Of a DNA stretch of 64,000 bases, positions 13,157-62,009 are shown one piece after another; the stretch's first letter is position 1; each line of letters starts with the position of its first letter. The notes under the pieces are model-generated. The model was not told the DNA's origin. It saw nothing but the letters and a program-made list of their open reading frames with translations, and searched no databases. Origin of the DNA: an uncultured Anaerolineales bacterium (GTDB lineage Bacteria > Chloroflexota > Anaerolineae > UBA1429); contig CAZYWU010000001.1 in assembly GCA_964651255.1 (NCBI GenBank), positions 131,890-195,889 of the forward strand, read 5' to 3'. The translations under genes were made by a program, and so were the position numbers.

Positions 13157-13196
13157 TATCGTCCCATCCTCGATCGATATCGTATTCACGCTGCGG

Positions 13197-16183: not shown

Positions 16184-17182
16184 CTAGGTGATCTGGAGCG
16201 TGTAACTTGTGTGCGCCGGGCGATTTACATCGATGATGCGCTCGATGATCCGCCGGTCGATCTCTCGATCCCCGCTGACGATAATCACACGAAAGGTGTG
16301 CGGGCCGTCGACATTTTCCTCTATTCGAACCTCGCATCCCGTGGCGATGCGCAGATGGGTCGATAGCCCGTCAACGGTGCCTCTCGCCTGGTGCAGCCAG
16401 TTGGCTTTGAGCAGCAACTCTCGTTGTGTCTCCGGCGACCAGTGCTCGTCGACCAGATGGGCCATCCAGTCGTTGAGCCACGGCAGGAACGTCTCCGGTG
16501 CGGTATCTGGATTCAGGAACATGTCCCAGTGGGCAACGATCTGCTGGATTGGGCCGATCAGATCCTCAAAGACCAGCAGATAGCGCCCGATAAAGTCCGT
16601 TTGGGCGTATATCGGCGGAAGGTACTGCAGCCAGCGGCTTGCCCGCGATGGCATACCCACCCAGGGCTGAACAGGCGCCGGTCCCATCACGGTGATCGGG
16701 GCCTCTGGCGGCGGGCCAGCGGGGCTCTCCGGTGGTCGCCTGGAGGCGCGCCGGGTACCCAGCCGCTCCAGCATGGCCAGGTCCACGGGGGGCGACTCTA
16801 TTTCTTGCTCAGGCGGCACCTCTGCTTCTGGCGTTTCTTCGTGCGCTGTCATAGAGGGCTCTTCCGTCACAAGCTGCTCAAAGGTCAGGCGGAATGGCCC
16901 GATCGCGATCACATCGCCGGGCTTGAGGGGCCGCGGCTCGTTAGGGGCCAGGGGCAAGTCGTTCAGCTGCGTCCCGTTGCTGCTGCCGAGATCTTCGATC
17001 CGGTACGGTTCGCGATCGCCCAGGATCCTAGCATGAACCCGCGACACCCAGGCGTGAGCAAGAACCAGGCTGGCCTGGGTCGAGTCGCGGCCAATCAGGA
17101 CCAGCGGCTCCTCAATCGTATACTCTCTGGCCGGTTCGTCGGGTGACACGATCACCAGCCTGTAACGAGGTTGCTGAGTCAT
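16184..17182 (-). CDS. CIS baseplate wedge protein, P2 gpI-like (Afp12-type), with N-terminal FHA domain
   Basis: N-terminal FHA (LVLIGRDSTQASLVLAHAWVSRVHARI...SSNGTQLN), a Pro-rich linker, and a C-terminal Tail_P2_I-like domain (FLPWLNDWMAHLVDEHWS...). ATG at 17182, 10 nt after the baseplate-J stop. Confidence 0.75.
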   Translation of the reverse strand: MTQQPRYRLVIVSPDEPAREYTIEEPLVLIGRDSTQASLVLAHAWVSRVHARILGDREPYRIEDLGSSNGTQLNDLPLAPNEPRPLKPGDVIAIGPFRLTFEQLVTEEPSMTAHEETPEAEVPPEQEIESPPVDLAMLERLGTRRASRRPPESPAGPPPEAPITVMGPAPVQPWVGMPSRASRWLQYLPPIYAQTDFIGRYLLVFEDLIGPIQQIVAHWDMFLNPDTAPETFLPWLNDWMAHLVDEHWSPETQRELLLKANWLHQARGTVDGLSTHLRIATGCEVRIEENVDGPHTFRVIIVSGDREIDRRIIERIIDVNRPAHTSYTLQIT

Positions 17183-17192
17183 CTCGTCAGCC

Positions 17193-19178
17193 TCATTCCA
17201 CCATGATCTCGACCTGGTGAATATCGGAAACAACGACCTCGTGCGCCAGCAAGTCGATCTTGCGGTCCGCCTGGTGGGCACGATCCTCGTCGTCGATCCA
17301 ATACATGTCGATGTTCTGAACGTTGAGCAAGCCCTCTACCTTTTGGATACAGCTGTAGAGATCGGAAAGGTACAACTCGCGGCCGAAAGGCCATCCGGTG
17401 CCCGCCGGCCCGCCACGGAGCGGGTTCACGAACCGGTCCAGCGCTGAGCGGATGTCCGCACCCAGGCGCCGTTCATCGACCTCCGGTCGCGCTATGACCT
17501 GTGCGCTGATACGGATGCGCTTGTAGCCTGCAGCCTGTACCTCAAGCTGGGTCGTCAGCAGGCGGCGGGCGTTCAGAAACGCCGTGATCCGCTCCTGGAG
17601 GTCGGATGAAAGCGCCAGCCGGGGCAGGGGAATGTAGTGGGTGGCCTCCTCTTCAGGCAGGTTCGGAATCACGAGCACGTACACCTGGCCAGGGCCACTG
17701 CGGTCCGCTCCCATACCCGCAAAGGCCGTCTGGAGGCAACACACACGGGCAACCTCGCCCTTGAAGGCATCCAGGGTGAGGAACTCATAGTCCTCCGGCG
17801 TGACCGCGCGGTAACGCGATCGCAGCAGGTTGCGGGCCCGAAACATGGCCTGTTCGAGTGTCTCCTGATCCAAACCGCCCTGTGCTGCTGTGCGGTTTGA
17901 GGTGCGGTCGATGTAGGCCAGCGCCGCACGCGGCTCGGTGATCGAGGCTGCCCGCACATTGCCTGCCGTACCGCCGCCATAGCGGTAGCGCGAGAACCGG
18001 AGCTCAGCCCCGCGTGGCGGCAGGGCACCGTAGCGCAACACGGTACCGTCGCGCTGCCGGAGTGCGGGTCCAAAGCGTACCTCGCCGGTCGCGCTGTCCA
18101 GCGCGTAATGACGGTCCTGAGGGCCAGATTCGGCGAGGGTTTCAACCTCCTCCCATGGCTCCCATCCCTCCATGCCCGGCATCCAGATTTCGACGCGCTC
18201 ATCCGCGTGGCGCGGCAGGACGGGCGTGTGTTCCAGATGGAACACTTGGCCAGGAGACCCGTCGCTCCTGCCCAGCGCCTCATTGGCGATTTCTGTGGCA
18301 TGCGAGGCCATCACGGTCGCGCCCCAGGTCACCATTTCCAGACGCCGCAGAATGGGCGAGGTGGCGTAGGGGCGCTGATCTTCGCGCGGCGGCGTCACCT
18401 GACAGCGGATCCAGTAGGCTTCGATGCCATTGATCTCGGAGCGCGACATGACAGGCAGGTGCATCCGGACCTGTCCGGTAAAGCTCATACCGCCGGTCGA
18501 GTCCACCTCAACGTCCGTGTCGCGCCAGCCATTGGCGGTCCATGCCTGCCAGACGATGGGCGGCGATTCGGGGATGATATTCAGTCCCCCGGCCCGCACG
18601 GCAGCCATGTCCAACCCGATATAATGATGGTCCAGATTGACGTCGAACCCGACGTACAGCGCGTCGCCCTCGGCGGGGCGGTCCGGGCTGAATACGGAGA
18701 ACTCGCCGCTCAGCCGGGCCAGGGGCACCTCGTGATAGGCCATGCCGCCGTCGGCGCTGCGATAGCGCGTGACGATGTGCAGCAGCCGGGCGGGGCGGAT
18801 CTCCAGGCTCTCCTCGGTGGTAAAGACTACCGCCTCGCCGCCGGCTCGTGACGTGGCTGTGGCGGTGCCTCGCGGGACCGTGATGGTCTGCTGTTGTGGC
18901 GCGGAGAGGTAAAAGGTCACCGGCACAGAGGCAGCCTGCGGTGGCTCGAGTTGGATGCCCAGCAGGTTGAGCAGTTCGATATAGTGCCGCGCCGGCATCT
19001 GGTTGACCCGGTAGAGCAGGATATCGACCATCCATGCGAACAACTCAATCAGAGTGACGCCCGGGTCGCTGACGTTGTGGTCCGTCCATTCCGGACAATA
19101 CAGCGGGATGCGCCTCTTGGCCTCATCGACCAGGTCCTGAAAGGAGCGATCGTCGAGCGGCTGCGTGGGTAACGGCAT
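17193..19178 (-). CDS. CIS baseplate protein, phage baseplate J / gp6-like (Afp11-type)
   Basis: 661 aa with the N-terminal PLYCPEWTDHNVSDPGVTLIELFAWM motif of the baseplate-J family (TIGR02243-like). Confidence 0.85.
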   Translation of the reverse strand: MPLPTQPLDDRSFQDLVDEAKRRIPLYCPEWTDHNVSDPGVTLIELFAWMVDILLYRVNQMPARHYIELLNLLGIQLEPPQAASVPVTFYLSAPQQQTITVPRGTATATSRAGGEAVVFTTEESLEIRPARLLHIVTRYRSADGGMAYHEVPLARLSGEFSVFSPDRPAEGDALYVGFDVNLDHHYIGLDMAAVRAGGLNIIPESPPIVWQAWTANGWRDTDVEVDSTGGMSFTGQVRMHLPVMSRSEINGIEAYWIRCQVTPPREDQRPYATSPILRRLEMVTWGATVMASHATEIANEALGRSDGSPGQVFHLEHTPVLPRHADERVEIWMPGMEGWEPWEEVETLAESGPQDRHYALDSATGEVRFGPALRQRDGTVLRYGALPPRGAELRFSRYRYGGGTAGNVRAASITEPRAALAYIDRTSNRTAAQGGLDQETLEQAMFRARNLLRSRYRAVTPEDYEFLTLDAFKGEVARVCCLQTAFAGMGADRSGPGQVYVLVIPNLPEEEATHYIPLPRLALSSDLQERITAFLNARRLLTTQLEVQAAGYKRIRISAQVIARPEVDERRLGADIRSALDRFVNPLRGGPAGTGWPFGRELYLSDLYSCIQKVEGLLNVQNIDMYWIDDEDRAHQADRKIDLLAHEVVVSDIHQVEIMVE

Positions 19179-19185
19179 AGTAGCG

Positions 19186-19581
19186 CTACTCCTCGGGAAT
19201 CAGATAAAAGGGGTACACCAGGCTGCGGCTGGAATGGGTAGACCGGATTGTATACCTCACATTGATTAACATGCGGGCTGTATCCTCCGGGTCAGGGGAT
19301 GCGGTCACCTGCTCGACCTGGATTCGCGGTTCCCAGCGCCCCAGGGCCAGCCGCACAAAGCGCTCGGCCTGGGCGATGGTCTGTAGATTGTTGGGTGCAA
19401 AGACGATCTCATTCAGCCGGCAGCCGAACTCTGGGCGCATGACGCGCTGGCCGGGGGAGGTCATCAGGATGATGCGGATCGATTCCTCAATCTCCTGCTC
19501 CCCCGACACGGTGGCGATGCGACCGCGATGGTCCAGCCGCGGCGGAAAGGCCCAGCCTCTTCCGATGATATCGTCCGACAC
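19186..19581 (-). CDS. CIS baseplate wedge protein, gp25/GPW lysozyme-like (Afp9-type)
   Basis: 131 aa with the GRGWAFP...RPEFGC motif of GPW_gp25. Confidence 0.85.
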   Translation of the reverse strand: MSDDIIGRGWAFPPRLDHRGRIATVSGEQEIEESIRIILMTSPGQRVMRPEFGCRLNEIVFAPNNLQTIAQAERFVRLALGRWEPRIQVEQVTASPDPEDTARMLINVRYTIRSTHSSRSLVYPFYLIPEE

Positions 19582-19613
19582 GTGATGCTCCTTATCGCTG
19601 CTGAACGAAGGCG

Positions 19614-20018
19614 CTACCCTCCGGCCATGACCGTGCCCGTGGCGATCACGGTTCCGGCCGGGGCCGGGTTGATGTCATCGCAGGTCCGCGCGGAATCCCC
19701 GTTCCGCGCGACTCCCTGACCATTGACCAGCACCGTCGTGCTGCCCATCACAATGGTAGCCAGGTTGGTGGGCGGCACCTGAAAGCTTGGGCCCCCAATA
19801 GGTATGTGCGGCGGCTGGTTCACCGCCGTGCTATTGACCGTGGCGACCGGCATGCCCCCGATCATTACGTTGCTGCTGAGCCCTCCGTTGATCATGCCGT
19901 TGAATGGATGCCCGGGCGTTGGCGTTGGCACAGGACCGCCCGGCGAGGGCACCATCACGATGTGCGTATCCATCGCGGTGACCATGTCCCCCATTTTCGC
20001 GATCGGCTGTGCTGGCAT
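19614..20018 (-). CDS. PAAR-domain spike-tip protein (Afp10-type)
   Basis: 134 aa, Gly/Pro-rich with repeated xxGxP..G blocks and ARNGDS.C, typical of PAAR cones. Confidence 0.75.
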   Translation of the reverse strand: MPAQPIAKMGDMVTAMDTHIVMVPSPGGPVPTPTPGHPFNGMINGGLSSNVMIGGMPVATVNSTAVNQPPHIPIGGPSFQVPPTNLATIVMGSTTVLVNGQGVARNGDSARTCDDINPAPAGTVIATGTVMAGG

Positions 20019-20030
20019 GATGCTCGCCTG

Positions 20031-21731
20031 CTACGGGTTCAGCTGGATCATGGCACCCTTGATCGTCAGGTTGCCGCTGGCCTCTATTTCCATGTTCGCA
20101 CCAGCCTTGATGCTGACGTTCGTGCCCCCTTCGATCTCCAAGTCACCGTCGCCCTTGATCGTGATCTTTCGCCCATTATCGTCCAGAGATAGTACGGCGC
20201 CGCCCGAGGTCGTAATCTCCACCTTGCCATCATCGTCGTGCAGCACCAGGATGTGACCGCCGGCGGTCTCGATCTGGACAAAGGCCTCGTTTTCCTCCGC
20301 CAGAGTGATCTTGTGTCCCACTCGTGTGACCAGGGCGCGCTGGACGATACTCCCGTTGGCTACTGATGTAGCCCTGTCGATCGGGGTGGCATCCTGGCCG
20401 TTCCAGAGGCCGCCAATCACGACCGGGCGTTCGATGTCTCCCTGCTCAAAAGCCACCAGGACCTCGTCATTGACCTCGGGCAACCAGTAGATGCCACGAT
20501 CCGGACCGGCGCCCGTGCCGATGACGCGCGCCCAGGGGCTGCTCAGGTCCGGGTTCAGCCACGGGAACTTGACCGTGACGCGTCCCATCTCGTCGGGATC
20601 GTTGATATCGGTAACGATACCCGTCATCACTGGCCAGCTTGTACCGGGTCGTACGTCCCTGTCGAGCAGTCGCGCCAGCGTGTCGTCGCGGCGGCCGCGC
20701 ACGGTAAAGTACGTGACATAGTCGCGCTCTGTATTCCACACATGTCTGGCCGTGGTGACCCGATACGTGCCGCTGAACCGGTTCCCCAGCGCGGTGATGT
20801 TCGCCATCTTGCGGGCCTGCAACTCGGGCATGCCAAAGCACTCGCCTTCGGCCTCGACAAAGGCGCCGTCGTACTCGTCCAGTATGGCCTGTGCCAGTTC
20901 ATCCGCCTCGGCCTGGTCCGCGACACTGGTGGCGACAGTCAGCTCGCTGGCACTGCCAAAGACATTCTCTGCCAGGCTGCCGCCCGTGCCTTGCTCTCCG
21001 ATCGATGGCGCGGCCTCGCCCGATGTCGCCCGGCCCACGATCTCGTTTTTCGTGGAAGGGTCCCAGCCCCGCACCTGCACCTCACTGACCTGCTCGCCCA
21101 GGCTGAGGATGGGCCGGAAACTGCGCAGGTTCTCGCCCCACTCAAGATTGACAGTTTCGCCCTGTGCCGTGCCCGCCTTGAAGCAGAGGGTGCGACCCTC
21201 GACATAGACGTCATAGCCGATTCTGCGCGCTCGCTCGCGAAGAAACGCCATGTGGGTTTGGCCGTGCTGGAACACGTGCTTGTGCTCGGTCGATGTCGCC
21301 TCGACGTCCGCGCGCAGCTGCACCTGACTGGCGACATCGGACGCGATGGCGCTGTCGGTCATGTTGGTGTAGGTTCTGGTGATGGCACCGCGATGCAGGC
21401 GATGCGACCGGTCGTAGGCGCGCACCACCAGATCGGCGACTGTGCCCTCGCGAAAGTCAGGCTCGATCCCGGTGATCTCACCGTCAAAGAGCGCGGTCTC
21501 CCCGCGGCCCTGTTCATCAGCGACGCCCACTTCGAGGCTGGCCCCCAGGTCAAAGGGCCCGTTGTTGATCAGCTCGGCCCCCGTGTCGTGCACGTTCAGC
21601 ACACACATTGCCGGGAGCGTCAGGCTGCTCTCGACCTCGACCCGGTAGAGCTCGTCCATGACGGCGGTCTGGAGCGAGGTCCCGTTGATTTTGACATAGA
21701 GTTGTCGACTCAGGGCTGCATCGCGGCTCAC
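20031..21731 (-). CDS. VgrG-like central spike (gp27/gp5 fusion, phage late-control-D-like; Afp8-type)
   Basis: 566 aa with a gpD/VgrG N-terminal region and a C-terminal beta-helix repeat (GGAVLSLDDNGRKITIKGDGDLEIEGGTNVSIKAGANMEIEASGNLTIKG). Confidence 0.9.
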   Translation of the reverse strand: MSRDAALSRQLYVKINGTSLQTAVMDELYRVEVESSLTLPAMCVLNVHDTGAELINNGPFDLGASLEVGVADEQGRGETALFDGEITGIEPDFREGTVADLVVRAYDRSHRLHRGAITRTYTNMTDSAIASDVASQVQLRADVEATSTEHKHVFQHGQTHMAFLRERARRIGYDVYVEGRTLCFKAGTAQGETVNLEWGENLRSFRPILSLGEQVSEVQVRGWDPSTKNEIVGRATSGEAAPSIGEQGTGGSLAENVFGSASELTVATSVADQAEADELAQAILDEYDGAFVEAEGECFGMPELQARKMANITALGNRFSGTYRVTTARHVWNTERDYVTYFTVRGRRDDTLARLLDRDVRPGTSWPVMTGIVTDINDPDEMGRVTVKFPWLNPDLSSPWARVIGTGAGPDRGIYWLPEVNDEVLVAFEQGDIERPVVIGGLWNGQDATPIDRATSVANGSIVQRALVTRVGHKITLAEENEAFVQIETAGGHILVLHDDDGKVEITTSGGAVLSLDDNGRKITIKGDGDLEIEGGTNVSIKAGANMEIEASGNLTIKGAMIQLNP

Positions 21732-21747
21732 ATTGATAACCTCGCTG

Positions 21748-22407
21748 CTATTCCATCGGCGGGATGATGATCAGCCGTCCGGTGCGCAGGTGCAAAGGAT
21801 CGTCTATCCCGTTGGCCTGGGCGATCTGTCGCCACTTGGTGCTGTCTCCGTACGCGTCATAGGCGATGAGATCGAGCCGGTCGCCCGCATCGAGCATGCG
21901 TGTGGTCGGGGCGATCCCGCCCCCGGACGTGGGGTTCTGCCCCAGAATGTCAAAGGCATCGCTCACCTGCTGCAGGCTGATCTGGATCGTGCTGCGCACC
22001 GCGGTACCGGAGGGCAGAAACAGGCCGATCTGCTCGCTCATCTGCGTGATGACCGCCTCAAAGGAAAAGGCGCCCCAGATAAACATGCAATGGGGCGGTT
22101 CACTCTTGCCCGTGCGCGGGTCCGTGCGCGCGTCGTCTACCATCATCATGTTCCAGAGATGCGCTGTCAGAGAGCGGACATCCTGGCCCGCGTCCAGTGT
22201 GTCAAAGAGCAAGCGCAATGTCAGAGTCTGAGCGCCGCCCTGCTGGAACCGGATGTGCGGGATGTTCTTGCCTTTGGTATCTGCCTGCTCGTAAGAGTTA
22301 GTCTTGGCGATGGTGTACTCGTACGGGTTGAACATGCAGGGCACAGACTCCCCCGTGTTCTTGTTCACGAGCACTGCGGGCGCCAGACCTCCTCGTGTTG
22401 TCGGCAT
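21748..22407 (-). CDS. CIS tube-initiator / LysM-domain protein (Afp7 / P2 gpX-U-like)
   Basis: N-terminal PCMFNPYEYTI motif and a C-terminal LysM (DRLDLIAYDAYGDSTKWRQIAQANGIDDP). Confidence 0.85.
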   Translation of the reverse strand: MPTTRGGLAPAVLVNKNTGESVPCMFNPYEYTIAKTNSYEQADTKGKNIPHIRFQQGGAQTLTLRLLFDTLDAGQDVRSLTAHLWNMMMVDDARTDPRTGKSEPPHCMFIWGAFSFEAVITQMSEQIGLFLPSGTAVRSTIQISLQQVSDAFDILGQNPTSGGGIAPTTRMLDAGDRLDLIAYDAYGDSTKWRQIAQANGIDDPLHLRTGRLIIIPPME

Positions 22408-22421
22408 CTCTACGTTTCTCC

Positions 22422-24503
22422 TTAGCGCAGGCGCGAGCCACCCATGCGCTCACGCTCCACACGCAAACGATCTCTCAGCTTGCTGAACACACGTTCCGCC
22501 AGTTCTTCGATATCCGGAGCCCGTTCCGCTTGCGGAGACTCTTCAGATTCTGCCGGGGCAGTCTCCGTAGAGGAATCTGCGCGGGTTGTATCCGCGGGCG
22601 CCTCGGCGCGCCGGATAGGCGGGCCCGGCGAGTCCCCTCGATCTCGTGTAACGCGAGTTGGTGCAGCCATGGATGCGACCACCTGATCGATAGGCAGTAC
22701 CTGCCTCGGAAGTGGGTGGGGAGCGCCGGGCGTCAACCTCTGTTGCTCAGCCGTAGCCAGTTGGGCAGGGGTGCGGTCCGGGAAACCGGTCTGCCTGCGC
22801 ACAGGCGGATGTTGCGATGTCGGCGTCACGGCGGACAAGGCAGATCCTCCTGCTGAGGCTGGCGGCGTCTGGGCCGGCGGTACCTCCTGTACCCATTGCG
22901 CCGACTCGCGCGGTGACCGCGGCTGGATCGGAGGCGCGCTGGAGGGCGGGAGCTGTGCTATAGCTGGCTCAGGCCAGGGCGGTATCGTCTCAGGCTCGGT
23001 GCTCGCCTCAGTCGCAAAGCGCTGCAACTGCGCCCGGTAAGCCTCGGCCAGATCCAAGCTCGCAGGGACGCTCTGCACAGGAGCATGTTCCGAACCGGGT
23101 GCCCGCCGTTGTTCGGCCGCTGCGGTGACGGCTGGTGCCTGCACATCGGGACTGCGCCTCACAACCGGCTTTACTGGAGGCGCGTCGGGTTCGACCGCGG
23201 GCTCAAACGATGGTGCCTCCGGTCTGGTCAATGCGCCTTCTGGTGTCTCTGGGAGCGCCGCGGCAGCGGCCCGGATATGGTGTAAAGCATCTCTCTGTTC
23301 TACCCGCGCTGGCGACGGCTCGATGGCGTCAGACTGCAGCGTAACGGCTGGCGCGGGCGCCATGGGCATCTCGGGAATGGGCTCGCTATCGCTTGGCACA
23401 GGCTGCGTATCCGCCGGTCGTGCCACCTGCTCGCGCGTCGCCTCAGGCGTGGCGGTGGGGCCGGCGGGAGCAGATCTCTCTTCAGGTGCACGGTAGACCG
23501 CCTGTGCCCGGGAGATCGCCTCGGACTCGCGCCGCAGCGGTTGCGCGGAGCTAGATGCGTCCGAGGGGCCCGCCGTTCCAGTCTCCGCCGGCGGCGGCGT
23601 CTCGGCCGTCGTGTCCGCAAGATCAGTCGCGGGCCTTACTGGCACGCCTGGCGTCCCAGTATCGAAATCCGGCACAGCCGTCTCGCGCCTCACGGTCTGG
23701 GAAGTCGTTGGACCCTGCCCCTGGGGCGATACGGTTGCCTCTGTCGTCGAAACCGTGCTCTGCGTTTCCGCGGTACGCCGGATCAGTGGCGCTGCGAGCT
23801 GAGAGGTCGGCCTGTCCGCTGTGCCCTCGGCACGGGCTGGCCCTCGTGCCGCCTGTGTTCGGACCGTGTCCGTTGGCGTGCCCGCTTGTTGTGCCGGAGG
23901 CTGTTCATAGAGCTGCGAGACGGGTTTGGGCCGCGCCCCGGGCGCGGGAGGCGTGGCAGATGCCGTTGCGGAGGGCCGCGCGCCTCCTCGTGCCTGCCCA
24001 GCGGCCTGCGTACCTGGTGAGGCCTGGCTTGATGCCGGCGACCGGGGCCGCTGGAGCGCTCGCCGTACCTCTTCCACGGTAAAGCCGGGCCGTGGTGGGG
24101 CCAGAGGTTCCGAAGCTGGCTCTGCGTCCGGTGAGAGGGGACCCCCATCTCTCGCGCCCAGGGCGGACACCGCGCCCGTGAATCCTGACTGGTGGCCACG
24201 ACCGCGCTCAAGTATCTCTACTTCCGGAGTCATGAGCGCCAGCGCAGGGGATTGAGATGGTTCTGTGGCCGGTGCAGAGGCGGGCCTGGCCGGCTCGATG
24301 GTGCGCTCGATGACCGGTGACACGCGCGCCGGCGTTGGCTCGGCAATGCTCTGCACGACTGGATGCCTTGTCAGCGTCATGGGGGTATATCGCGTGGCCT
24401 GCCGCTGCAGAGGCCCGGGTTCCGGCTCCGGTATGATGTACCGGCGCTTGATATGCCGGGCGAAAGCCACGCTGACAAGTCGCAGGCCGTTCCCGTCTGT
24501 CAT
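22422..24503 (-). CDS. proline/alanine/threonine-rich low-complexity protein in the tape-measure (Afp14) position
   Basis: 693 aa. Position between tube 2 and the LysM protein matches the P2-like tube–tape-measure–U/X order. ATG overlaps the tube-2 stop (ATGA). Only the short N- and C-termini look non-repetitive. Confidence 0.5.
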   Translation of the reverse strand: MTDGNGLRLVSVAFARHIKRRYIIPEPEPGPLQRQATRYTPMTLTRHPVVQSIAEPTPARVSPVIERTIEPARPASAPATEPSQSPALALMTPEVEILERGRGHQSGFTGAVSALGARDGGPLSPDAEPASEPLAPPRPGFTVEEVRRALQRPRSPASSQASPGTQAAGQARGGARPSATASATPPAPGARPKPVSQLYEQPPAQQAGTPTDTVRTQAARGPARAEGTADRPTSQLAAPLIRRTAETQSTVSTTEATVSPQGQGPTTSQTVRRETAVPDFDTGTPGVPVRPATDLADTTAETPPPAETGTAGPSDASSSAQPLRRESEAISRAQAVYRAPEERSAPAGPTATPEATREQVARPADTQPVPSDSEPIPEMPMAPAPAVTLQSDAIEPSPARVEQRDALHHIRAAAAALPETPEGALTRPEAPSFEPAVEPDAPPVKPVVRRSPDVQAPAVTAAAEQRRAPGSEHAPVQSVPASLDLAEAYRAQLQRFATEASTEPETIPPWPEPAIAQLPPSSAPPIQPRSPRESAQWVQEVPPAQTPPASAGGSALSAVTPTSQHPPVRRQTGFPDRTPAQLATAEQQRLTPGAPHPLPRQVLPIDQVVASMAAPTRVTRDRGDSPGPPIRRAEAPADTTRADSSTETAPAESEESPQAERAPDIEELAERVFSKLRDRLRVERERMGGSRLR

Positions 24504-24931
24504 GACACCGTCACCATCTCGTAGGCCAGTTCCAGAGATTCTATCGCGATCGCGGAACTGCCCGCACTGAGCTCGGGCCCGCTCCACTTGGTGGGAAAGG
24601 CCATGTGAAAGTCCCAGCGGATAACTGGCTCACCGGCGTCGTCCAACAGCGTCACCGACACCTGCTTACGGGCCGCCATCAGCTGGCCCTGAATCACCTG
24701 GGTGTACCAGGCCATCAGGTCGCTGCCGGTGGCCACGCCTCGTTTGAGCGTCAGCGTGCCTCGGCGAACGCGCCCGGGCAGAGGGTGCGATCCCACGTTA
24801 TAGCCGCCCTCTTTCTGCTCCTGGATCTCTACCTCCAGTGCCGGGAGGGTGCATTCGGTGAATGTCGCTCCCGGAAGACCGTCGATCTGGACGCTAAAGC
24901 GATAGGCGGGATGGGCATCCGGACGTTCCAT
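24500..24931 (-). CDS. CIS inner tube protein, paralog 2 (Afp5/T4 gp19-like)
   Basis: 143 aa with YRFSVQIDGL...FTECT..., homologous to the tube protein at 25459-25902. Confidence 0.85.
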   Translation of the reverse strand: MERPDAHPAYRFSVQIDGLPGATFTECTLPALEVEIQEQKEGGYNVGSHPLPGRVRRGTLTLKRGVATGSDLMAWYTQVIQGQLMAARKQVSVTLLDDAGEPVIRWDFHMAFPTKWSGPELSAGSSAIAIESLELAYEMVTVS

Positions 24932-25089
24932 CAGGTCCCGACCTCATTGGTGTGAATTCTGTCGACCTCGCGCACCCATCGCCGGCGCTCGGGATGTTCG
25001 AGTGACAGGATGTCGTCCCGTGACCAGTGCAAGTAATAGGCCAGGTACGCTACCTCCTCGAGCATCCGGTCGAGGGGGTAGCGCGTCAT
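24931..25089 (-). CDS. 52-aa conserved-looking microprotein, translationally coupled between the 119-aa ORF and tube 2
   Basis: The internal ATG at 25089 overlaps the stop of the upstream ORF (ATGA). Its own stop overlaps the tube-2 ATG (TGATG). The longer 69-aa ORF in the track would overlap the upstream gene by 55 nt. Confidence 0.4.
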   Translation of the reverse strand: MTRYPLDRMLEEVAYLAYYLHWSRDDILSLEHPERRRWVREVDRIHTNEVGT

Positions 25090-25445
25090 TCCCCCAGTGG
25101 CACGATCTCCTGTCGAAAGACCGTATGACAGTTCGGGCATTCCACCTCGATCGTATCGGCGCCGGTCTCGTTGATACGCCTGTAAAAGTCTTGCAGGTAG
25201 GCCATATCTGCGGCGAACAGGTTTTCGATGACATGAGGGGTCACCTGGTCCAGACTGCCCAGGCGAGTGACGACGCGCGACAGCAGCAGTATCGCCAGGT
25301 AAGCCTCGTTAGATCGCACGCGCATGTCCCGGAGCGGGGCGATCTCATCCATTGCCGTGGCCAGCCTCATCACGCCCTGGCGATGGACCCGCCCCTCTCC
25401 GTCGACGTACCCGCGCGGAAGCTCGAAGGGGAACTCTGTCTGCAT
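25086..25445 (-). CDS. 119-aa CIS-associated hypothetical protein (Afp6-position) with C-terminal CPNC zinc-ribbon-like motif
   Basis: Located between the two tube genes. GGAGG SD 5 nt before the ATG. No confident family assignment. Confidence 0.55.
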   Translation of the reverse strand: MQTEFPFELPRGYVDGEGRVHRQGVMRLATAMDEIAPLRDMRVRSNEAYLAILLLSRVVTRLGSLDQVTPHVIENLFAADMAYLQDFYRRINETGADTIEVECPNCHTVFRQEIVPLGE

Positions 25446-25458
25446 AAGGGCCTCCGGT

Positions 25459-25902
25459 CTAGCTTACGCGGAATAGGCCCTCATGGGTGATCACGAGCTC
25501 CTCGACCCCCAGCTCATTGCTATCCGCCTTGATGGACGGACCGGACACCTTGACTGGCCAGGCTTTCTCAAAGTTCCAGCGGGCCACCTCGTTCAGGCCC
25601 TGGTCGAACATGATGATCGATCCCTCACGGCGGGCCTCGTCGACCTTGCCCTGAACGACCAACTCACGCCAGTCCCAGATGTCCATGTTGTCGGTGATAC
25701 CGCGCTTGAGCGTGATGTTCTCCCATTTGAGCCGGCCGGGGATTTTGAGCACATGCTCTCGCCCGGCTTCATCGACGACCTTGTGCTCGATCACCTCGTT
25801 CTCGGAGCCGATGCCGGAGCACTCGGTAAAGTACCCGGTGACCTCGCCCGCAACATCAATCGCATAGTGAAAACCAACAAGCGGATCTTTTCGGTCCGTC
25901 AT
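25459..25902 (-). CDS. CIS inner tube protein, paralog 1 (Afp1/T4 gp19-like)
   Basis: 147 aa, FHYAIDVAGEVTGYFTECSG...LKRG, the classic eCIS/T6SS-Hcp-like tube signature. Confidence 0.9.
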   Translation of the reverse strand: MTDRKDPLVGFHYAIDVAGEVTGYFTECSGIGSENEVIEHKVVDEAGREHVLKIPGRLKWENITLKRGITDNMDIWDWRELVVQGKVDEARREGSIIMFDQGLNEVARWNFEKAWPVKVSGPSIKADSNELGVEELVITHEGLFRVS

Positions 25903-25938
25903 GGATCGCTCTCCTTGCTCTACTTAGCTGGGCTGGCG

Positions 25939-27504
25939 CTAGGCCGCGGCGGGCCCCGCCCACTGGCTGATACGGAAGATCACAAACTCCGCCGGCTTGA
26001 CCGGGCAGATGCCGATCTCGATGATCAACTGGCCCAGGTCGCGCACTTCGACCGGATTCAGTTCCTCATCGCACTTTACATAAAACGCCTCATTGGGGGT
26101 TGTGCCAAAGAGTGCGCCGGATGTCCACACTGTACGCAGGAAGGCCGTCACATCGCGCCTGACGCGCGCCCAGAGGTCCGGGTCGTTAGGCTCAAAGACG
26201 ACCCACTGTGTGCCGCGCTCGATGGATTCCTCCACCATGTTAAAGAGGCGACGCACATTGATGTATCGCCACGCCGGATCGCTGCTCAGCGTGCGGGCGC
26301 CCCAGATGCGGATTCCGCGGCCGGGGAAGGCACGGATGCAGTTCACCCCGATGGGGTTCAGCGCATCCTGCTCGCCTCGGGTGAGCTGAACCGGAAGGCC
26401 AGTGGCGCCGCGGATCACCTCGTTGGCCGGGGCCTTGTGCACCCCGCGCTCGGCATCGCTGCGCGCATAGACACCCGCAATGTGGCCAGAAGGCGGAATG
26501 CGGATGCTCCCCTTACCCTTGACCATATCTGCGGTCTCGATCCAGGGATAGTACAGCGCAGCGTACTTGGTATCATAGTTGCTGGACTGGCGCCACTGCA
26601 GCATCGCCTGAGGACTGAGATCGGGCGGGCAGTCCAGAATAGCAAAGCTGTACTTGCTCTGCTCGCAGTGCTCGTACAGCGCCTGCTGTACCGCCTGGAC
26701 ATCCTGCAGCGACATCTCGCCAGACTGGAAGCTCTGCATCAGGTCCGGCACCGCCACCATCGTGACCTCGTCTACGGGCGTGAGGCCACCCAGCCCGGTG
26801 CGTTCTGCCACTTCGCCCCGATAGGCCGCCACGGTGAGCGCTTTGGTCTCGATCTTGCCGCCCTGCAGGGTATACTCGCCGGCGCGCGGTCTGCGCTCCG
26901 CCAGTGTGCCCTTGCTTTGCTGCACCTGCACCGTGATGAACCGAGACCGCGTATTGACCACCGTCTCGACATTCTGATCGCCCTTGCCCAGAGTTAGATC
27001 CTGAAAGGTCTCTGTACCGCCGGGAGCTGAGATGATCAGCGTAAAGGTCTCGGCGGCCGGGTCCTCAGGCTCGCGCACTGTGACCTTGATCTCGTTGCCG
27101 CTCGGGCCGCCAGACCTGGCCTTGATCTGAAGCGTGTCGCCGCCGCCTTCCGCGCGCGCCGGTAGTGCCGCGACAGCCGGCGTGGCCAGCCGTTCGTCCA
27201 CAGAGGCGCCCAGTGCCTTGACAGAGACTACGTAGCAGCGACTACCCCCGTTCGCAAAGTAACCATAGACCGAATAGGGCAGGTAGGCCCCCTCGACAAA
27301 CCCACCGAATTTGTCGGTGTACTGGGTCCAGTTGGTGATGGCCACGGGGCGATTCTGGAGCGAGGTCACCTCGCCATTGCTGACTTCCTCAGCCTTTTCG
27401 GTAAAGCCGATAAAGGCTGCGACAGCCGTGCCCACGGCCTCGATGGGCCGGGTTCCGCCCTCACGTTCTTCGATGTAAACACCAGGTGACAGATAAGTTG
27501 GCAT
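25939..27504 (-). CDS. contractile sheath protein (Afp2-4 / phage tail sheath family)
   Basis: Starts MPTYLSPGVYIEE (the ATG at 27504 is preceded by AGGA). 521 aa. Only one sheath gene is present in the locus. Confidence 0.9.
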   Translation of the reverse strand: MPTYLSPGVYIEEREGGTRPIEAVGTAVAAFIGFTEKAEEVSNGEVTSLQNRPVAITNWTQYTDKFGGFVEGAYLPYSVYGYFANGGSRCYVVSVKALGASVDERLATPAVAALPARAEGGGDTLQIKARSGGPSGNEIKVTVREPEDPAAETFTLIISAPGGTETFQDLTLGKGDQNVETVVNTRSRFITVQVQQSKGTLAERRPRAGEYTLQGGKIETKALTVAAYRGEVAERTGLGGLTPVDEVTMVAVPDLMQSFQSGEMSLQDVQAVQQALYEHCEQSKYSFAILDCPPDLSPQAMLQWRQSSNYDTKYAALYYPWIETADMVKGKGSIRIPPSGHIAGVYARSDAERGVHKAPANEVIRGATGLPVQLTRGEQDALNPIGVNCIRAFPGRGIRIWGARTLSSDPAWRYINVRRLFNMVEESIERGTQWVVFEPNDPDLWARVRRDVTAFLRTVWTSGALFGTTPNEAFYVKCDEELNPVEVRDLGQLIIEIGICPVKPAEFVIFRISQWAGPAAA

Positions 27505-27605
27505 CTCTCTATCCTTTGACTGATAGCAGGCCGGGGACATGACCGGCGTGCGACGAGGTCCACTGGTCCGGAGCTATAGAGCGATACCCTCCTTTCTTGT
27601 GGTGG

Positions 27606-28436
27606 CTATATCTCGAGGTCGTATGATTCCAGGCTTTGCGGCGGCACGGGCACGCGGTGCGTCGCCTCGCGGCCATCCGCCTGCACTCGGAGCCGGTATT
27701 CTCCGCCCGATAGCCCACCAAAGCGATAGCGTCCAAAGTGGTCGGTGAGGCAAGTCTGCCCCGTCTCTATCACGCTAACTGTGGCCCTGGGTACAGCAGG
27801 GCCACCCCTGGCCTGAAAAACGATGCCCGCGATCTCAAAGGTCGTCGACCGCGTAGCTTCGGCAGCATTGCGGTCAAGAACATCCACGCGCCGAGAGATG
27901 ACCCACGGGCTCGTAAAGGCCACGGCACGCTCCATGGCCAACGTGACTGTATAGTTGATCGAGGGCCTGAGCTGGTTCTCCATGACGCCCCAGAGATCGG
28001 GCAGGTTCTCGATGGCGCGCGAAGGCTGAGCGGTTCGCGCGTGCACCGGATAGGGCTGATTGCGCAGGCCGGGCTCAAGGATTTCCGTGTCCAGCGTCGG
28101 CGTGCCAGCCAGCGCACCAAGCACGCGCCACAGTATCGCGTGTTCATCCTCCACCTGATTCTGCGTCCAGACGGTGACCAGGTACGAGAGATCGTAGCGC
28201 AGAGGCGCCAGCCGCTTGCTGACCTGGCCTTCAGAATCACGCTCGACGATCCACTCTTGTGAACGAAGCTCCGTATTCTCCCGTATGTCGTACAGGTAAA
28301 AGTTGATCGTCGGGCGCGTCAGTCCAGCAGCCCAGTCGCCGGTGGGCTGGTCAAAGCTCACCGTGACACTGTCCGTGTCAAAGTTGCCGTGCTTTAGCAC
28401 CAGATTCCGGATGGTCTCGTCGAGCTGATTGATCAT
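27606..28436 (-). CDS. CIS tail terminator/cap, DUF4255 (Afp16/Pvc16-like) with carboxypeptidase-regulatory-like C-terminal domain
   Basis: N-terminal LTRPTINFYLYDI DUF4255 signature. C-terminal GIVFQARGG...GRYRFGGLSGGEYRLRV beta-sandwich. Confidence 0.8.
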   Translation of the reverse strand: MINQLDETIRNLVLKHGNFDTDSVTVSFDQPTGDWAAGLTRPTINFYLYDIRENTELRSQEWIVERDSEGQVSKRLAPLRYDLSYLVTVWTQNQVEDEHAILWRVLGALAGTPTLDTEILEPGLRNQPYPVHARTAQPSRAIENLPDLWGVMENQLRPSINYTVTLAMERAVAFTSPWVISRRVDVLDRNAAEATRSTTFEIAGIVFQARGGPAVPRATVSVIETGQTCLTDHFGRYRFGGLSGGEYRLRVQADGREATHRVPVPPQSLESYDLEI

Positions 28437-28505
28437 CCCCTGCCTCGAATTAGCTCTAGCACCTGACTAGCCTGCAATGACGCGCCGAGGTGTTACCCTT
28501 CTGGG

Positions 28506-29195
28506 CTATGCTTCCTCCAACTCTTCCTCTTCTTGCCGGCGCACTGTCTGTACCGCTTCTTCCTCCTCCTCCTCGTCCTCGGCCTGGCGCTGGACAGCGT
28601 CGCCTCCGGTGTCTGGCGCCCTGCTGGCCAGGCGCTGCACCACCTGATCGGCCATGGCGTCCGCCTCGAGTTCGGCGGGGTCATTGGCAGCACCTACATC
28701 CAGCTTGGCGCCATCTTGCTGCTGTGCAACGTGGGCGAGTTCGTGAGCCAGCAAGCGCTGCCCGTCCCCGGTCGCCGGGTTGTACTGGCCGGCGGAGAAA
28801 AAGATGTCGTTGCCCCGCGTAAAGGCCCGTGCTGACAGCTCAGAGTTCAGCGTATCAGCCTCAGAGTCGTTGTGTATGCGAACCCCCGCAAAGTCGGCCC
28901 CAAAGGCTCCTTCCATGCTCTGTCTGGTCGCGTGATCCATGGCTGACCCCGATCCAGCCTGGGAATCGATGGCGCGCTCCACATGCTCGGGGGCCACAAA
29001 GGCGTCTTCCTGTGCAAAGCGCCGCGCGATCCGGTTGCCCGCGCGCCGGGCGACCTCGCGCAGGACGTGCGGTGTCAGCACCCGCGCCAGACGAGATGGC
29101 CGGGCGCGTGGCGACGTTTCGGCGTCGACTGTGTTCGAGGGCTGCTGTACAGCCAGTCTACTTCTTGTGCGGATCCATTCATGCTCAGTACTCAT
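28506..29195 (-). CDS. DUF4157-like protein with HExxH motif and polyglutamate C-tail (possible CIS effector/payload)
   Basis: LLAHELAHVAQQQ zincin-like motif inside a DUF4157-type core. C-terminus RQAEDEEEEEEAVQTVRRQEEEELEEA. ATGA overlap with the ATPase stop. Confidence 0.65.
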   Translation of the reverse strand: MSTEHEWIRTRSRLAVQQPSNTVDAETSPRARPSRLARVLTPHVLREVARRAGNRIARRFAQEDAFVAPEHVERAIDSQAGSGSAMDHATRQSMEGAFGADFAGVRIHNDSEADTLNSELSARAFTRGNDIFFSAGQYNPATGDGQRLLAHELAHVAQQQDGAKLDVGAANDPAELEADAMADQVVQRLASRAPDTGGDAVQRQAEDEEEEEEAVQTVRRQEEEELEEA

Positions 29196-31315
29196 CGTCC
29201 CGGCCTCCCCGATGATGTGTCGTGGATTGCCACGACACGACGGACGAGTTCCATTCCAAAGTCATCTTCATCGATCAGTTTGCCGAGCTTTTGAAACTCG
29301 CGGCGCACGCCCCACAAGAGATGACGCATGGCAACGATCTCGCCATCCCTGGCCGCCAAAAAGGCGGCGTTCACGAGGGCGTTGCGGATGCTGCCGCCAG
29401 AGAGCCGAAAACGGCCCGCAAGCGAGGCCAAGTCCACATCAGCCGCCAGGGGCAGTTGCGCAGGCACGGTGCGCTCCCAGATGAGGCGGCGCGACGCTTC
29501 GTCCGGAAACGGGAATTCGATACTGAACTGCAGCCTGCGCAGGAACGCCTCATCCAGATTCTGTCTCAGGTTGCTGGTGAGGATCACGACGCCGTCGTAT
29601 TCTTCCACCTTTTGCAGCAGGTAACTGATCTCTATGTTCGCGTAGCGGTCATGGGCATCTTTGGTCTCGGAGCGCTTGCCAAAGAGCGCATCGGCCTCGT
29701 CAAAGAGTAGGATCGCGTTCGAGTCGCGGGCCAGATCAAATATCCTGTCCAGGTTCTTTTCGGTTTCGCCGATATATTTGCTGACCACGCCCGAGAGATC
29801 GATCTTGTACAGGTCCAGCGACAGATCGGTGGCGATCACCTCTGCGGCCATAGTCTTGCCCGTGCCCGAGGGCCCAGCGAACAAGGCTGAAAGGCCCTGG
29901 CCCCGCGCCGATTGGCGTCCAAAGCCCCAGGCACCATAGACCACGTGTCGGAAGCGAAACTGGTCGCACATCTCGTGAATCTGAGCCGTGCGGTCGGCAG
30001 GCAAGACGAGGTCTTCCCAGGTGTGTCTGGCGACGATCTGGCTGGCAAGATCACCCAGCCTCACGGCACTCACGGCCCGAGAGGCGGCCGCCAGATCATC
30101 AAAGGTGATGACAGGCTCCGAGGAGCGACGCTGCCAGGCATGTTCCGCGGCACCGCGGGTGGCAACGTGGATCTGTGCGCCATCGAGCCTGTAGCGTGCT
30201 GCCAGGACTGGCAGGTCGTCCGGATCAGCCAGGGCGCGTCCTTGAAGGGCGCGCTGCCAGAGTACCAGGCGCCCCTCATAGTCCGGTGCCGGCAGGTCGA
30301 GCACCGCCACGCGCACCGCCTCCGAGGCCGGCTGCGGCAGGCTCGTGTGCCTGGGTGTGTGCCAGACCACGGTGAGCCCGGGGTGTTCCAACAGGGTTGC
30401 CCATTCGAATGCGGCATAGCTGTCGTGAATGGCAACACGATCTGTGATCTCAACATACAGGACAGCGTCGTACAGCAGCGCATCTCGCGCGGCTTGTTGC
30501 ACGCGCAGCAGCACCGCCTCTTGCTGATCCGAATCGTCAACGGAGAGCGTCACCATGGGGCGAGCTTGCTGTGCGGCGCAGTCCTGGGCCAGAGCGCATG
30601 ATGTCCAGGAGCGATCGGAACGCACCTGGATCCACAGCGGCCGGTCGCCACTGGTGATAAGCGACCAGATCGCTTCACGCGCCTCCGCCGGGTATAGATC
30701 GGGCAGCCAGGTGCTATCTTCGCCCCTCCAGTAAGGTGAAGCCGAGGCTGGACCCTCCTTGTCTGGCGACAGCAAGAAGCGAACAACCTGCGGGGCAACC
30801 TGAGCCGTACGTCTCAGAAGCGTATCGGGTCCCTCAGCGGGCGGTGACAGGATCATGAGCCCGTAACGCGAGAGGGTAGCCTCCCCATGAAAGAGGGTGC
30901 GCGCGGCCAGCCGTGCGCCAAGATCAGGCCACAGCAGAGCGAGAAGGAGGTCGACGATGGGGCGTTTGCAGGTAACGTCATCCTGGAGGAATCCAAAGAT
31001 GCGTTCGTAACGGAGGTCGAACTCGGGTAACAGACAGATGAGCAGTATCTGAGACTCGGTCGCGCTCAGATCAAAGACACGTTTCAGATGCGTCCAGCGA
31101 TCTTCTTCGGAAAGAGGTGGAAAGGCAGCAGGAGCAGAAGTTACCAGTGACGCACCGAAGGGTTGCTCTAAAAGTTGAAGAAACTCATGATCGGTAATAA
31201 ATAGGCCACGAAACTCCCCATTGTCTGGCGCGCGCTCTTCATACAACCTTCTGGCGGTTTGCACCAGAAAGCCATCGATGCGCCGCAGTTCGTTGAGAAG
31301 GGTGCCCCCGACCAT
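29192..31315 (-). CDS. CIS AAA+ ATPase (Afp15-type) with large N-terminal extension
   Basis: 707 aa. C-terminal AAA+ module with Walker A GPSGTGKT and Walker B ILLFDEADALFGKR. N-terminal roughly 440 aa is non-ATPase. Confidence 0.85.
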   Translation of the reverse strand: MVGGTLLNELRRIDGFLVQTARRLYEERAPDNGEFRGLFITDHEFLQLLEQPFGASLVTSAPAAFPPLSEEDRWTHLKRVFDLSATESQILLICLLPEFDLRYERIFGFLQDDVTCKRPIVDLLLALLWPDLGARLAARTLFHGEATLSRYGLMILSPPAEGPDTLLRRTAQVAPQVVRFLLSPDKEGPASASPYWRGEDSTWLPDLYPAEAREAIWSLITSGDRPLWIQVRSDRSWTSCALAQDCAAQQARPMVTLSVDDSDQQEAVLLRVQQAARDALLYDAVLYVEITDRVAIHDSYAAFEWATLLEHPGLTVVWHTPRHTSLPQPASEAVRVAVLDLPAPDYEGRLVLWQRALQGRALADPDDLPVLAARYRLDGAQIHVATRGAAEHAWQRRSSEPVITFDDLAAASRAVSAVRLGDLASQIVARHTWEDLVLPADRTAQIHEMCDQFRFRHVVYGAWGFGRQSARGQGLSALFAGPSGTGKTMAAEVIATDLSLDLYKIDLSGVVSKYIGETEKNLDRIFDLARDSNAILLFDEADALFGKRSETKDAHDRYANIEISYLLQKVEEYDGVVILTSNLRQNLDEAFLRRLQFSIEFPFPDEASRRLIWERTVPAQLPLAADVDLASLAGRFRLSGGSIRNALVNAAFLAARDGEIVAMRHLLWGVRREFQKLGKLIDEDDFGMELVRRVVAIHDTSSGRPGR

Positions 31316-31386
31316 GTGTGCCTCGCGTTCACATCGAGAGGAGAAGGACGCTATCAGGCACGACTAACGATTGTTGACTCCATACT

Positions 31387-31415
31387 ATCATAGCGCATGG
31401 TCAACTGGGTGTCAA
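31387..31415 (-). promoter_or_regulatory. near-consensus sigma70 promoter (TTGACA-17-TATGAT) driving the CIS operon
   Basis: On the minus strand, TTGACA at 31415-31410 and TATGAT at 31392-31387, exactly 17 bp apart, about 72 bp upstream of the ATPase ATG (31315). Confidence 0.6.
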
Positions 31416-51666: not shown

Positions 51667-54384
<2,718 letters not shown>

Positions 54385-54387
54385 GCA

Positions 54388-56779: not shown

Positions 56780-56807
56780 GGCGACTTCCTTTCGTAACCC
56801 GGCTCAT

Positions 56808-57032: not shown

Positions 57033-57077
57033 GCGTTACTCCTACAAACGAATTTGCTGCGACTGCCGTCTCGCCTG

Positions 57078-62008: not shown

Positions 62009-62009
62009 G

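Follow-up and report, generated by a model that had tools for sequence, protein, structure and literature searches.

The 64,000-nucleotide stretch analyzed here (the window; positions 131,890 to 195,889 of contig CAZYWU010000001.1, assembly GCA_964651255.1, from an uncultured Anaerolineales bacterium) carries a locus for a contractile injection system (CIS), best explained as a 16-gene operon of ~18.2 kb that runs from 31415 to 13140 on the minus strand of an Anaerolineae-type Chloroflexota genome. The CIS lineage itself is already known. The new feature, as seen in sequence and synteny, is an FHA domain on the baseplate wedge protein Cis12 together with a linked membrane Ser/Thr kinase. We consider it probable, with some reserve, that this pair serves phospho-dependent docking or triggering of a cytoplasmic CIS at the membrane, which would then fire under a kinase signal. 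The locus bears on two questions, namely how cytoplasmic CIS are told to fire and how a particle without tail fibers finds the membrane; for Streptomyces firing, only the requirement for the protein CisA is known (PMC12237407).

Neither the FHA-Cis12 fusion nor the kinase is described in the papers on the Streptomyces system (CISSc; PMC12237407, PMC10066040), in the dbeCIS paper (PMC6899500), in a metagenome survey or in a fiber catalog. In the full-text literature searched, no paper was found that links an FHA domain or a kinase to CIS or extracellular CIS (eCIS); most subscription journals lie outside this coverage, so the absence is no proof.

An earlier note on this DNA, made from the letters alone, had called the last of the fifteen genes it listed a gpI-like wedge. 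The wedge assignment holds for the Tail_P2_I/Cis12 core, but the note missed the N-terminal FHA domain, to which a short Cis12 is fused by a tether (Table 1). Residues 186-331 match the entire 190-aa Cis12 of CISSc (9gtp_E, E 1.1e-12). The AlphaFold2 (AF2) model reaches a predicted local distance difference test score (pLDDT) >90 for the FHA domain and, from about residue 225 on, for the core, with values <50 over most of residues 108-219, that is, the linker and the start of the core. In Foldseek comparisons, the FHA part matched the phosphothreonine-binding FHA domains of GarA/OdhI with a root-mean-square deviation of 1.3-1.6 Å, and the C-terminal part matched the 9GTP baseplate chain listed as 9gtp_A. 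The residues of the phosphothreonine pocket (GR, SRxH and SxNGT) are invariant in 21 homologs with identities down to 34%, which on sequence grounds indicates an intact pocket. CISSc contains one Cis12 per wedge (PMC12237407); if the same holds here, each baseplate would therefore display six FHA domains.

The prevalence of the fusion was assessed with an exhaustive HMMER search using the Cis12 core against 1.84 billion cluster representatives (50% identity; E <= 1e-10), which replaced an earlier homology search with the core alone that had given 2 matches. It yielded 959 matches. An FHA domain was present in 95 of the 150 best representatives and a receiver domain in one of the 150. FHA-Cis12 is thus not rare among its nearest 50%-identity cluster representatives, and no published description of it was found. 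A different arrangement occurs in a locus of another CIS lineage (L103, 8001-15003; split VgrG, 1008-aa Cis11), where Cis12 bears a PASTA domain and is followed by one unannotated 517-aa gene and then three FHA proteins; of these, one is fused to an SLT lytic transglycosylase and another to NHL/Vgb_lyase repeats. The N-terminal end of Cis12 seems to serve generally as a socket for signaling domains (FHA, PASTA, receiver).

The second component lies directly behind FHA-Cis12. The earlier note had placed the operon within 16184-31415; the fifteen genes are there, but the transcription unit continues into a sixteenth (13197-16169). This kinase gene begins 14 nt after the Cis12 stop codon, with its own ribosome-binding site (RBS) GGAGAG ahead of it. 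No terminator was found between the two genes. A strong hairpin occurs only downstream of the kinase gene, and this hairpin (13165-13140) is likely the end of the transcription unit.

The kinase gene occupies the tail-fiber/CisA position. Its product comprises a kinase domain (residues 1-290), an FHA domain (340-435), two immunoglobulin (Ig)-like beta-sandwiches (464-673) and a transmembrane (TM) helix (680-700), followed by a low-complexity region and a PLAT domain (831-897 and 951-990) according to the AF2 model and Pfam. The Hanks-type catalytic motifs are intact (K42, HRD138-140, DFG169-171, APE195-197). We predict a single-pass protein with the kinase, FHA and both Ig-like domains in the cytoplasm and the PLAT domain outside it. 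The PLAT/LH2 domain (13200-13679, residues 831-990) is circularly permuted: the C-terminal half comes first, followed by a Pro/Thr linker and the N-terminal half. In native order, the Pfam match falls into two pieces (44.2 bits), whereas swapping the halves in silico gave one continuous match over positions 1-112 of 117 (55.8 bits). The permuted order is shared by the homologs P0096 and P0098. A homology search with the C-terminal half of the kinase returned only 12 matches, as low-complexity words dominated the candidates.

Across loci, the TM helix follows the Ig-like module in 16 of 20 cases. The ectodomain differs among homologs (PLAT, TSP3, or ~900 aa in Deinococcus), a variability as expected for a sensor. 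Within the interval between kinase and FHA domain, a segment SLxT[ML]...WPTPPS is conserved among the closer homologs. Two metagenome-assembled genomes (MAGs) of Aggregatilineales/Anaerolineae (L008, L012) carry stop-to-stop frames of 2096 and 2264 codons after FHA-Cis12, with two kinase and three to four FHA domains ahead of the Ig-like/TM module, and with an additional DUF4157 gene in between.

To follow the association of the two genes, we mapped locus domains by tblastn, drawing on a genome-collection scan, contig look-ups and annotated plasmids; the resulting counts ignore shared ancestry. In 17 of the 20 loci with informative downstream sequence, the next gene after FHA-Cis12, on the same strand, encodes a kinase-FHA-Ig-TM protein. 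These carriers are the window and L001, L003, L005, L006, L008, L009, L010, L012, L013, L014, L046 and L104, as well as a Roseiflexus MAG (L019) and megaplasmids of the cultured species Deinococcus psychrotolerans, D. aquaticus and D. grandis. In D. aquaticus, gp25 and Cis11 come first, then FHA-Cis12, the kinase, a hypothetical gene and VgrG, so the kinase sits inside the CIS cluster. Conversely, none of nine loci with an FHA-less Cis12 (Dehalococcoidia, Thermomicrobiales, Chloroflexia) encodes a kinase; in five of them, the opposite strand has a gene for an FHA-Ig(-TM) protein, and in two there are genes for Ig-TM proteins. Kinase and FHA-on-Cis12 occur together. We rejected the idea of a chance neighbor because the linkage spans two phyla with a spacing of 4-14 nt.

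The convergent opposite-strand proteins with FHA and Ig-like domains but no kinase domain were seen in L015, L020, L021, L024 and L025 (Dehalococcoidia and other Chloroflexota), with a TM helix predicted in L015, L020 and L024 and none in L021 or L025. A membrane protein with a cytoplasmic Ig-like module beside the baseplate genes is thus what the loci of these phyla have in common. On the D. grandis plasmid pDEGR-1 (L110, 8559-9576), the deposited annotation splits or misses FHA-Cis12, with an opposite-strand hypothetical gene called over the FHA part, and labels the 1602-aa kinase 'hypothetical protein'; such mis-annotation may explain why the module went unnoticed.

The particle to which this pair belongs is of the CISSc type. 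For five parts (sheath, Cis11, Cis12, cap and VgrG), the best solved homologs are all CISSc chains (PDB 9GTP, 9GTR, 9GTS, 8BKY); the sheath and Cis11 align over their full length (8bky_A, E 1.7e-160; 9gtp_1K, E 2.5e-141), and Afp, PVC, AlgoCIS and Anabaena tCIS proteins gave far weaker matches. Subtype IId was defined by a single afp11, a contiguous afp8, PAAR, no afp13 fiber and no Afp14-type tape measure (PMC6899500). The window has one Cis11, a contiguous VgrG and PAAR, with no fiber match and no Afp14-type tape-measure match in Pfam or NCBIfam. As gene content agrees with that definition and the best hits are CISSc, we count the locus as IId-like, and its placement in the Streptomyces CISSc-like lineage is supported on these grounds. 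The earlier note was right in calling it a CIS but incomplete, as this is an IId-like lineage with cytoplasmic members and not the classical extracellular Afp/PVC type. Studied members of the IId lineage act in the cytoplasm (PMC12237407, PMC12998442): for Chloroflexota and Deinococcota, imaging in Roseiflexus and Deinococcus showed particles lying free inside the cells (PMC12998442), and CISSc mediates stress-induced cell death from inside the cytoplasm (PMC10066040).

We propose that the particle is built unattached in the cytoplasm, as those of Roseiflexus, Deinococcus and Streptomyces are, and that the kinase acts as a signal-gated counterpart of CisA, the bitopic membrane protein that CISSc requires for firing and that is believed to carry the baseplate to the membrane (PMC12237407). 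An extracytoplasmic signal, likely envelope or membrane stress, would activate the kinase. A membrane or envelope cue is proposed because PLAT is a lipid-binding fold. The kinase would then autophosphorylate threonines in its linker, with the conserved SLxT/WPTPPS segment as the candidate site, and the tethered FHA domains of Cis12 would dock on these phosphothreonines. Docking would orient the baseplate on the membrane and trigger contraction, and that cell of the filament would undergo regulated death or lysis, as in Streptomyces. On this view, the FHA domains would play the part of tail fibers inside the cell, recognizing a phospho-mark.

Our confidence differs between the parts of this proposal. 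That some CIS step is under phospho-control we hold with fairly high confidence; that docking or firing specifically is the controlled step, with moderate confidence. The widest version, in which the baseplate FHA domains are intracellular 'tail fibers' that have as their receptor a phosphothreonine mark carried by a membrane sensor kinase, and in which a Ser/Thr phospho-switch common to Chloroflexota and Deinococcota gates firing and regulated filament-cell death and evolved independently of the PpkA-Fha pair of the T6SS (type VI secretion system), is offered tentatively, as a possibility on which we would not yet rely.

Several observations weigh against the docking proposal. The putative docking motif (SLxT/WPTPPS) is conserved in closer relatives only. 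Catalytic motifs are degenerate in some distant homologs, with HES for HRD in L003/L014 and HGN..I for HRD..K in L046, so catalysis may be dispensable there; FHA, Ig-like and TM parts are kept in these proteins, which may be pseudokinases with a scaffold role only. Three FHA-Cis12 loci have no adjacent kinase domain (L007, L105 and L011, the last with FHA and Ig). A tblastn search with a PP2C query, which gave positive-control matches elsewhere, found no PP2C phosphatase in the window or in related CIS loci, which leaves reversibility unexplained. Assignment to subtype IId is based on gene content and top matches rather than on a phylogeny. Finally, Roseiflexus particles were seen unanchored in unstressed cells (PMC12998442), an observation that fits conditional docking but equally fits no docking at all.

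The main rival explanation is that kinase and FHA gate assembly instead of docking or firing: the kinase would phosphorylate Cis12 or another CIS protein, or the FHA domains would scaffold baseplate nucleation, and particles would be built only under a signal. There is a precedent, as PpkA and Fha control the assembly and positioning of the T6SS, placing and initiating it at the membrane (PMC12607579), and both FHA domains (of Cis12 and of the kinase) give weak matches to NCBIfam TagH/VI_FHA. The Thr/Ser-rich Cis12 tether and the Thr-rich protein at the tape-measure position would be plausible substrates, and Roseiflexus CIS production varies with niche and condition (PMC12998442). However, the FHA domain here is covalently within a structural wedge protein and no free scaffold, and a kinase in the tail-fiber/CisA position, membrane-anchored beside cytoplasmic Ig-like domains, suits a docking platform. 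We regard assembly control as unlikely, though worth serious weight, and the two roles are not mutually exclusive.

Quite improbable, in our view, is a membrane-anchored, T6SS-like system that fires outward, in which the kinase-FHA link would hold the baseplate and the spike would be fired into neighboring cells. A bitopic partner and a baseplate adaptor are indeed present, as are PAAR and VgrG, and the DUF4157 protein is of a class described as N-terminal carriers of PVC toxins. Yet the operon has no toxin domain or immunity gene, the DUF4157 protein has just an acidic tail, no ClpV-like recycling ATPase or TssJLM-type complex was found, and the studied relatives are free-floating and cytoplasmic (PMC12998442, PMC10066040). 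We give even less credence to a classical extracellular CIS that is released by lysis and has the kinase as an expression regulator or unrelated neighbor: the general gene set resembles Afp/PVC, but no tail-fiber gene was found, homology to CISSc is much stronger, and the FHA-Cis12/kinase linkage is kept in two phyla at close spacing. A defective prophage or R-type tailocin is hardly credible and was rejected; the earlier note, too, had read the locus as a CIS and not a prophage. Although all structural genes are phage-tail-derived and a tail-assembly-chaperone pair is present, a Pfam scan of ~65 open reading frames (ORFs) in the 64-kb window found no capsid, terminase, portal, integrase, repressor, holin, endolysin or other head, packaging, integration or lysis genes, the CIS-specific markers Cis15 AAA+ ATPase, Pvc16 cap and DUF4157 are there, and GC content is uniform, with the CIS region matching its flanks.

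Most of what the earlier note had said about the layout was borne out. Its fifteen co-directional genes are 15 ORFs on the minus strand between 31315 and 16184, and profile searches (Pfam, NCBIfam, PHROG) recovered every core CIS part, with Pfam and NCBIfam matches above curated cut-offs; sheath, inner tube, tube initiator, VgrG spike, gp25, baseplate J, Pvc16 cap and Cis15-type AAA+ ATPase share one cluster. The genes are tightly packed (widest intergenic gap 101 nt). Its 'many' ATGA overlaps were overstated, as only three of 15 junctions are ATGA and one is TGATG. The TTGACA-17-TATGAT promoter it named upstream is present at 31415-31387. As promoter-like sites occur across the region at chance level (4 observed, 3.6 expected), this site was tested by comparison with relatives. 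In L085, whose ATPase is 93% identical, both hexamers are unchanged and five of 17 spacer bases differ; the equivalent sites are TTGACT-17-TATGAT in L087 (60% identical) and TTGACA-18-TATGAT in L086 (65% identical). The site is thus conserved in all three, and the promoter reading of the earlier note holds up.

Table 1 Coordinates and supporting matches of the operon features (window positions, listed in the direction of transcription; AF2, AlphaFold2; RBS, ribosome-binding site)
Feature	Position	Strand	Basis
Sigma-70-type promoter, TTGACA-17-TATGAT	31387..31415	-	11/12 consensus positions
Cis15 AAA+ ATPase, N-terminal winged-helix domain	29192..31315	-	PF22977 E 4e-29; PF00004 E 4e-26; PHROG 10401
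DUF4157 / PVC-metallopeptidase ('eCIS core')	28506..29195	-	PF13699 E 1.7e-31
Cis16 cap (Pvc16_N, C-terminal CarboxypepD_reg)	27606..28436	-	PF14065 E 1e-33; PF13620 E 8e-11
Cis2 sheath	25939..27504	-	PF04984, PF17482; start is second ATG, with RBS
Cis1a inner tube (gp19-type)	25459..25902	-	PF06841 E 5e-36
Tail-assembly-chaperone-like protein, 119 aa	25086..25445	-	PHROG 508 E 3.8e-7
DUF6760 reading frame	24931..25089	-	PF20546 E 1.3e-10; -1 frame relative to chaperone gene
Cis1b second tube (gp19-type)	24500..24931	-	PF06841 E 3e-38
693-aa Pro/Ala/Thr-rich protein, tape-measure position	22422..24503	-	Position; P 15.7%, A 16%
Cis7 tube initiator (CIS_tube), LysM-like C-terminus	21748..22407	-	PF19266 E 2.7e-24
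Cis8 VgrG spike, one contiguous ORF	20031..21731	-	PF04717 E 1e-27; CISSc 9gtr_q E 1.5e-49
Cis10 PAAR tip	19614..20018	-	PF05488 E 1e-11
Cis9 gp25-like sheath initiator	19186..19581	-	PF04965 E 2e-26
Cis11 baseplate J wedge, single copy	17193..19178	-	TIGR02243 E 1.4e-133
FHA-Cis12, 332 aa	16184..17182	-	PF00498 E 5e-17; PF09684 (Tail_P2_I) E 4e-13; true start is ATG at 17182
FHA domain of Cis12, aa 1-105	16868-17182	-	PF00498 E 5e-17
Cis12 tether, aa 106-185, disordered, Pro-rich, ~80 residues		-	AF2
Cis12 wedge core, aa 186-332	16187-16627	-	Match to CISSc Cis12
Bitopic Ser/Thr kinase, 990 aa	13197..16169	-	PF00069 E 5e-45; PF00498 E 1e-17; PF01477
Hairpin, 11-bp perfect stem and 4-nt loop, 3' of kinase stop	13140..13165	-	-25.9 kcal/mol, z -4.19

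Homology assigns the cap, sheath, two tubes, tube initiator, VgrG/PAAR spike, gp25, Cis11 and Cis12 to the predicted particle, and the AAA+ ATPase, DUF4157 protein, chaperone pair and Pro/Ala-rich protein to putative roles in assembly or loading. The DUF4157 gene overlaps that of Cis15 by ATGA, and its product has an acidic tail and a HELAHVAQQ motif; an HExxHxxQ signature has been described for the DUF4157/PVC-metallopeptidase class (PMC3482391). Residues 1-167 are the only part of the window's cap that matches the CISSc cap (9gts_0A; E 1.8e-24); the Ig-like CarboxypepD_reg domain of the window protein is a C-terminal extra, and the CISSc cap aligns through the N-terminal 166 residues only. 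The 693-aa protein at the tape-measure position has no family match in Pfam, NCBIfam or PHROG. Its conservation among relatives is limited to the last ~40-60 residues, with L001 and L023 matching only the C-terminus, and with 32% Pro and Ala it would, if it is a length ruler, be extended and not helical.

Between the two tube genes lie the chaperone-like gene and DUF6760, which resemble the lambda G/GT and P2 E/E' pairs: the two ORFs overlap, are located between tube and tape-measure genes, and the second is read in the -1 frame. The 119-aa chaperone-like protein is 57-82% identical across phyla and carries the RefSeq name 'phage tail assembly protein'; it has no PDB match. A G-run (G GGG G, 25095-25091) lies directly ahead of its stop codon; junction and G-run are at 25097-25086, and the junction sequence is CTGGGGGAATGA. 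In this arrangement, DUF6760 could arise through translational coupling (ATGA) or as a -1 frameshift fusion. In 14 of 14 Chloroflexota loci (the window and 13 relatives), DUF6760 is in the -1 frame, and in the window and 13 related loci 5-7 G lie 0-5 nt ahead of the chaperone stop. Five independent loci (L003/L014, L005, L013, L017, L018) offer no possible ATG, GTG or TTG start for DUF6760. Nostoc and Streptomyces plasmids have the same CTG/CCG GGG GAA motif, and RefSeq annotates ATA and CTG starts for DUF6760. A universal G-run was rejected, as D. aquaticus has GCGTGA with a GTG start, and no canonical X XXY YYZ slippery heptamer was found at the junction. This comparative evidence makes it likely that a CIS assembly gene undergoes a conserved, programmed -1 frameshift like that of lambda G/GT. 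No paper on DUF6760 or a CIS frameshift was found within the literature coverage given above.

The housekeeping surroundings noted earlier (mobB, upp, por) are present in the flanks, which carry pyrimidine synthesis (pyr) genes, larB/C/E, mobB, a GT4 transferase gene, upp, POR, gyrB, gatB and ATP synthase genes; metagenomic relatives have matching lar genes beside the CIS locus. A LarC-like gene beside the operon end (12677-13156, plus strand) covers only positions 239-374 of the 375 of the Ni_insertion model, its C-terminal third, and a short LarC-like form occupies the same place in L001. Two F-type ATP synthase sets lie near each other on the minus strand with a glucose-6-phosphate dehydrogenase gene between them: the first (51667-57959) comprises epsilon, beta, gamma, alpha, b, a and an AtpI-like gene, and the second (60087-63875) a further gamma, an N-terminally extended 621-aa alpha and a 339-aa ORF without a Pfam match.

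For future work, the locus offers a chemically defined, mutable link consisting of the kinase active site, the phosphothreonine pocket of the wedge and a variable external sensor. Megaplasmids of cultured Deinococcus species also carry the module, and CIS particles have already been imaged in one of these species, so the hypothesis is directly testable.

Among known systems, Afp and PVC have the core parts list and the Afp1-16 naming in common with the locus but differ in their three sheath paralogs, long Cis12, Afp13 fibers, Afp14 tape measure and toxin cargo, which were not found in the window. The thylakoid-anchored CIS (tCIS) of Anabaena likewise lies inside the cells of a multicellular filament and is held at a membrane by additions to its baseplate proteins (PMC8894136, PMC12237407). 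Homology to it is weaker (7b5h sheath E 6e-56, Cis11 E 4e-4), and its anchoring is constitutive, through baseplate extensions, whereas the addition in the window is a signaling domain and attachment would be conditional.

Closer is the Roseiflexus/Deinococcus lineage (PMC12998442), which shares the gene set and, in Roseiflexus, the phylum, and whose particles are intracellular. The Roseiflexus MAG L019 and D. grandis pDEGR-1 have the same pair of FHA-Cis12 and kinase-FHA-Ig-TM as the window; identity to L019 is 34% for FHA-Cis12 and 41% for Cis11, and Deinococcus homologs are ~26-34% identical to the window. The accessible part of the paper on this lineage (Gaisin et al. 2026) annotates baseplate, spike, tube, cap and ATPase genes only, with FHA and kinase unmentioned there.

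CISSc and the window system both have two tubes, a single Cis11, a short Cis12 and no tail fiber; in both, the gene of a bitopic membrane protein directly follows the baseplate genes (PMC12237407), and both hosts are filamentous and multicellular. They differ in that the 190-aa Cis12 of CISSc has no FHA domain and that the window has PAAR and the extra cap domain but no TM effectors of the Sco4256-58 type. The kinase gene lies at the position of that for CisA, and the predicted N-in/C-out topology of its product is the same, but its domains are unlike those of CisA, which has a disordered cytoplasmic N-terminus, a substrate-binding-like ectodomain and no kinase, FHA or Ig-like domain; this comparison is with the published description of CisA, not between sequences.

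The regulatory likeness is with the T6SS, in which the gene cluster of a contractile machine likewise encodes an FHA protein and a membrane-spanning Hanks-type kinase whose extracytoplasmic sensor domain varies. There, the PpkA-Fha pair sets where and when the machine assembles (PMC12607579, PMC7817224), and threonine phosphorylation responds to membrane stress (PMC7817224). The machines differ, as the window has a phage-type sheath and a Cis15 ATPase, and no TssB/C-type sheath, TssJLM or ClpV family was found among the 16 gene products with Pfam and NCBIfam. So do the modules: in the window, one FHA domain is fused to a structural wedge and a second lies in the kinase itself, and a PppA-type PP2C phosphatase was not found. 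The hosts are Proteobacteria for the T6SS but Chloroflexota and Deinococcota for FHA-Cis12 and its kinase. Because the module is built differently and in a different machine, it looks like convergence with PpkA-Fha and not shared ancestry. If true, the locus would add to the T6SS a second and independent example of a contractile nanomachine controlled by Ser/Thr phosphorylation, which would point to a general design principle.

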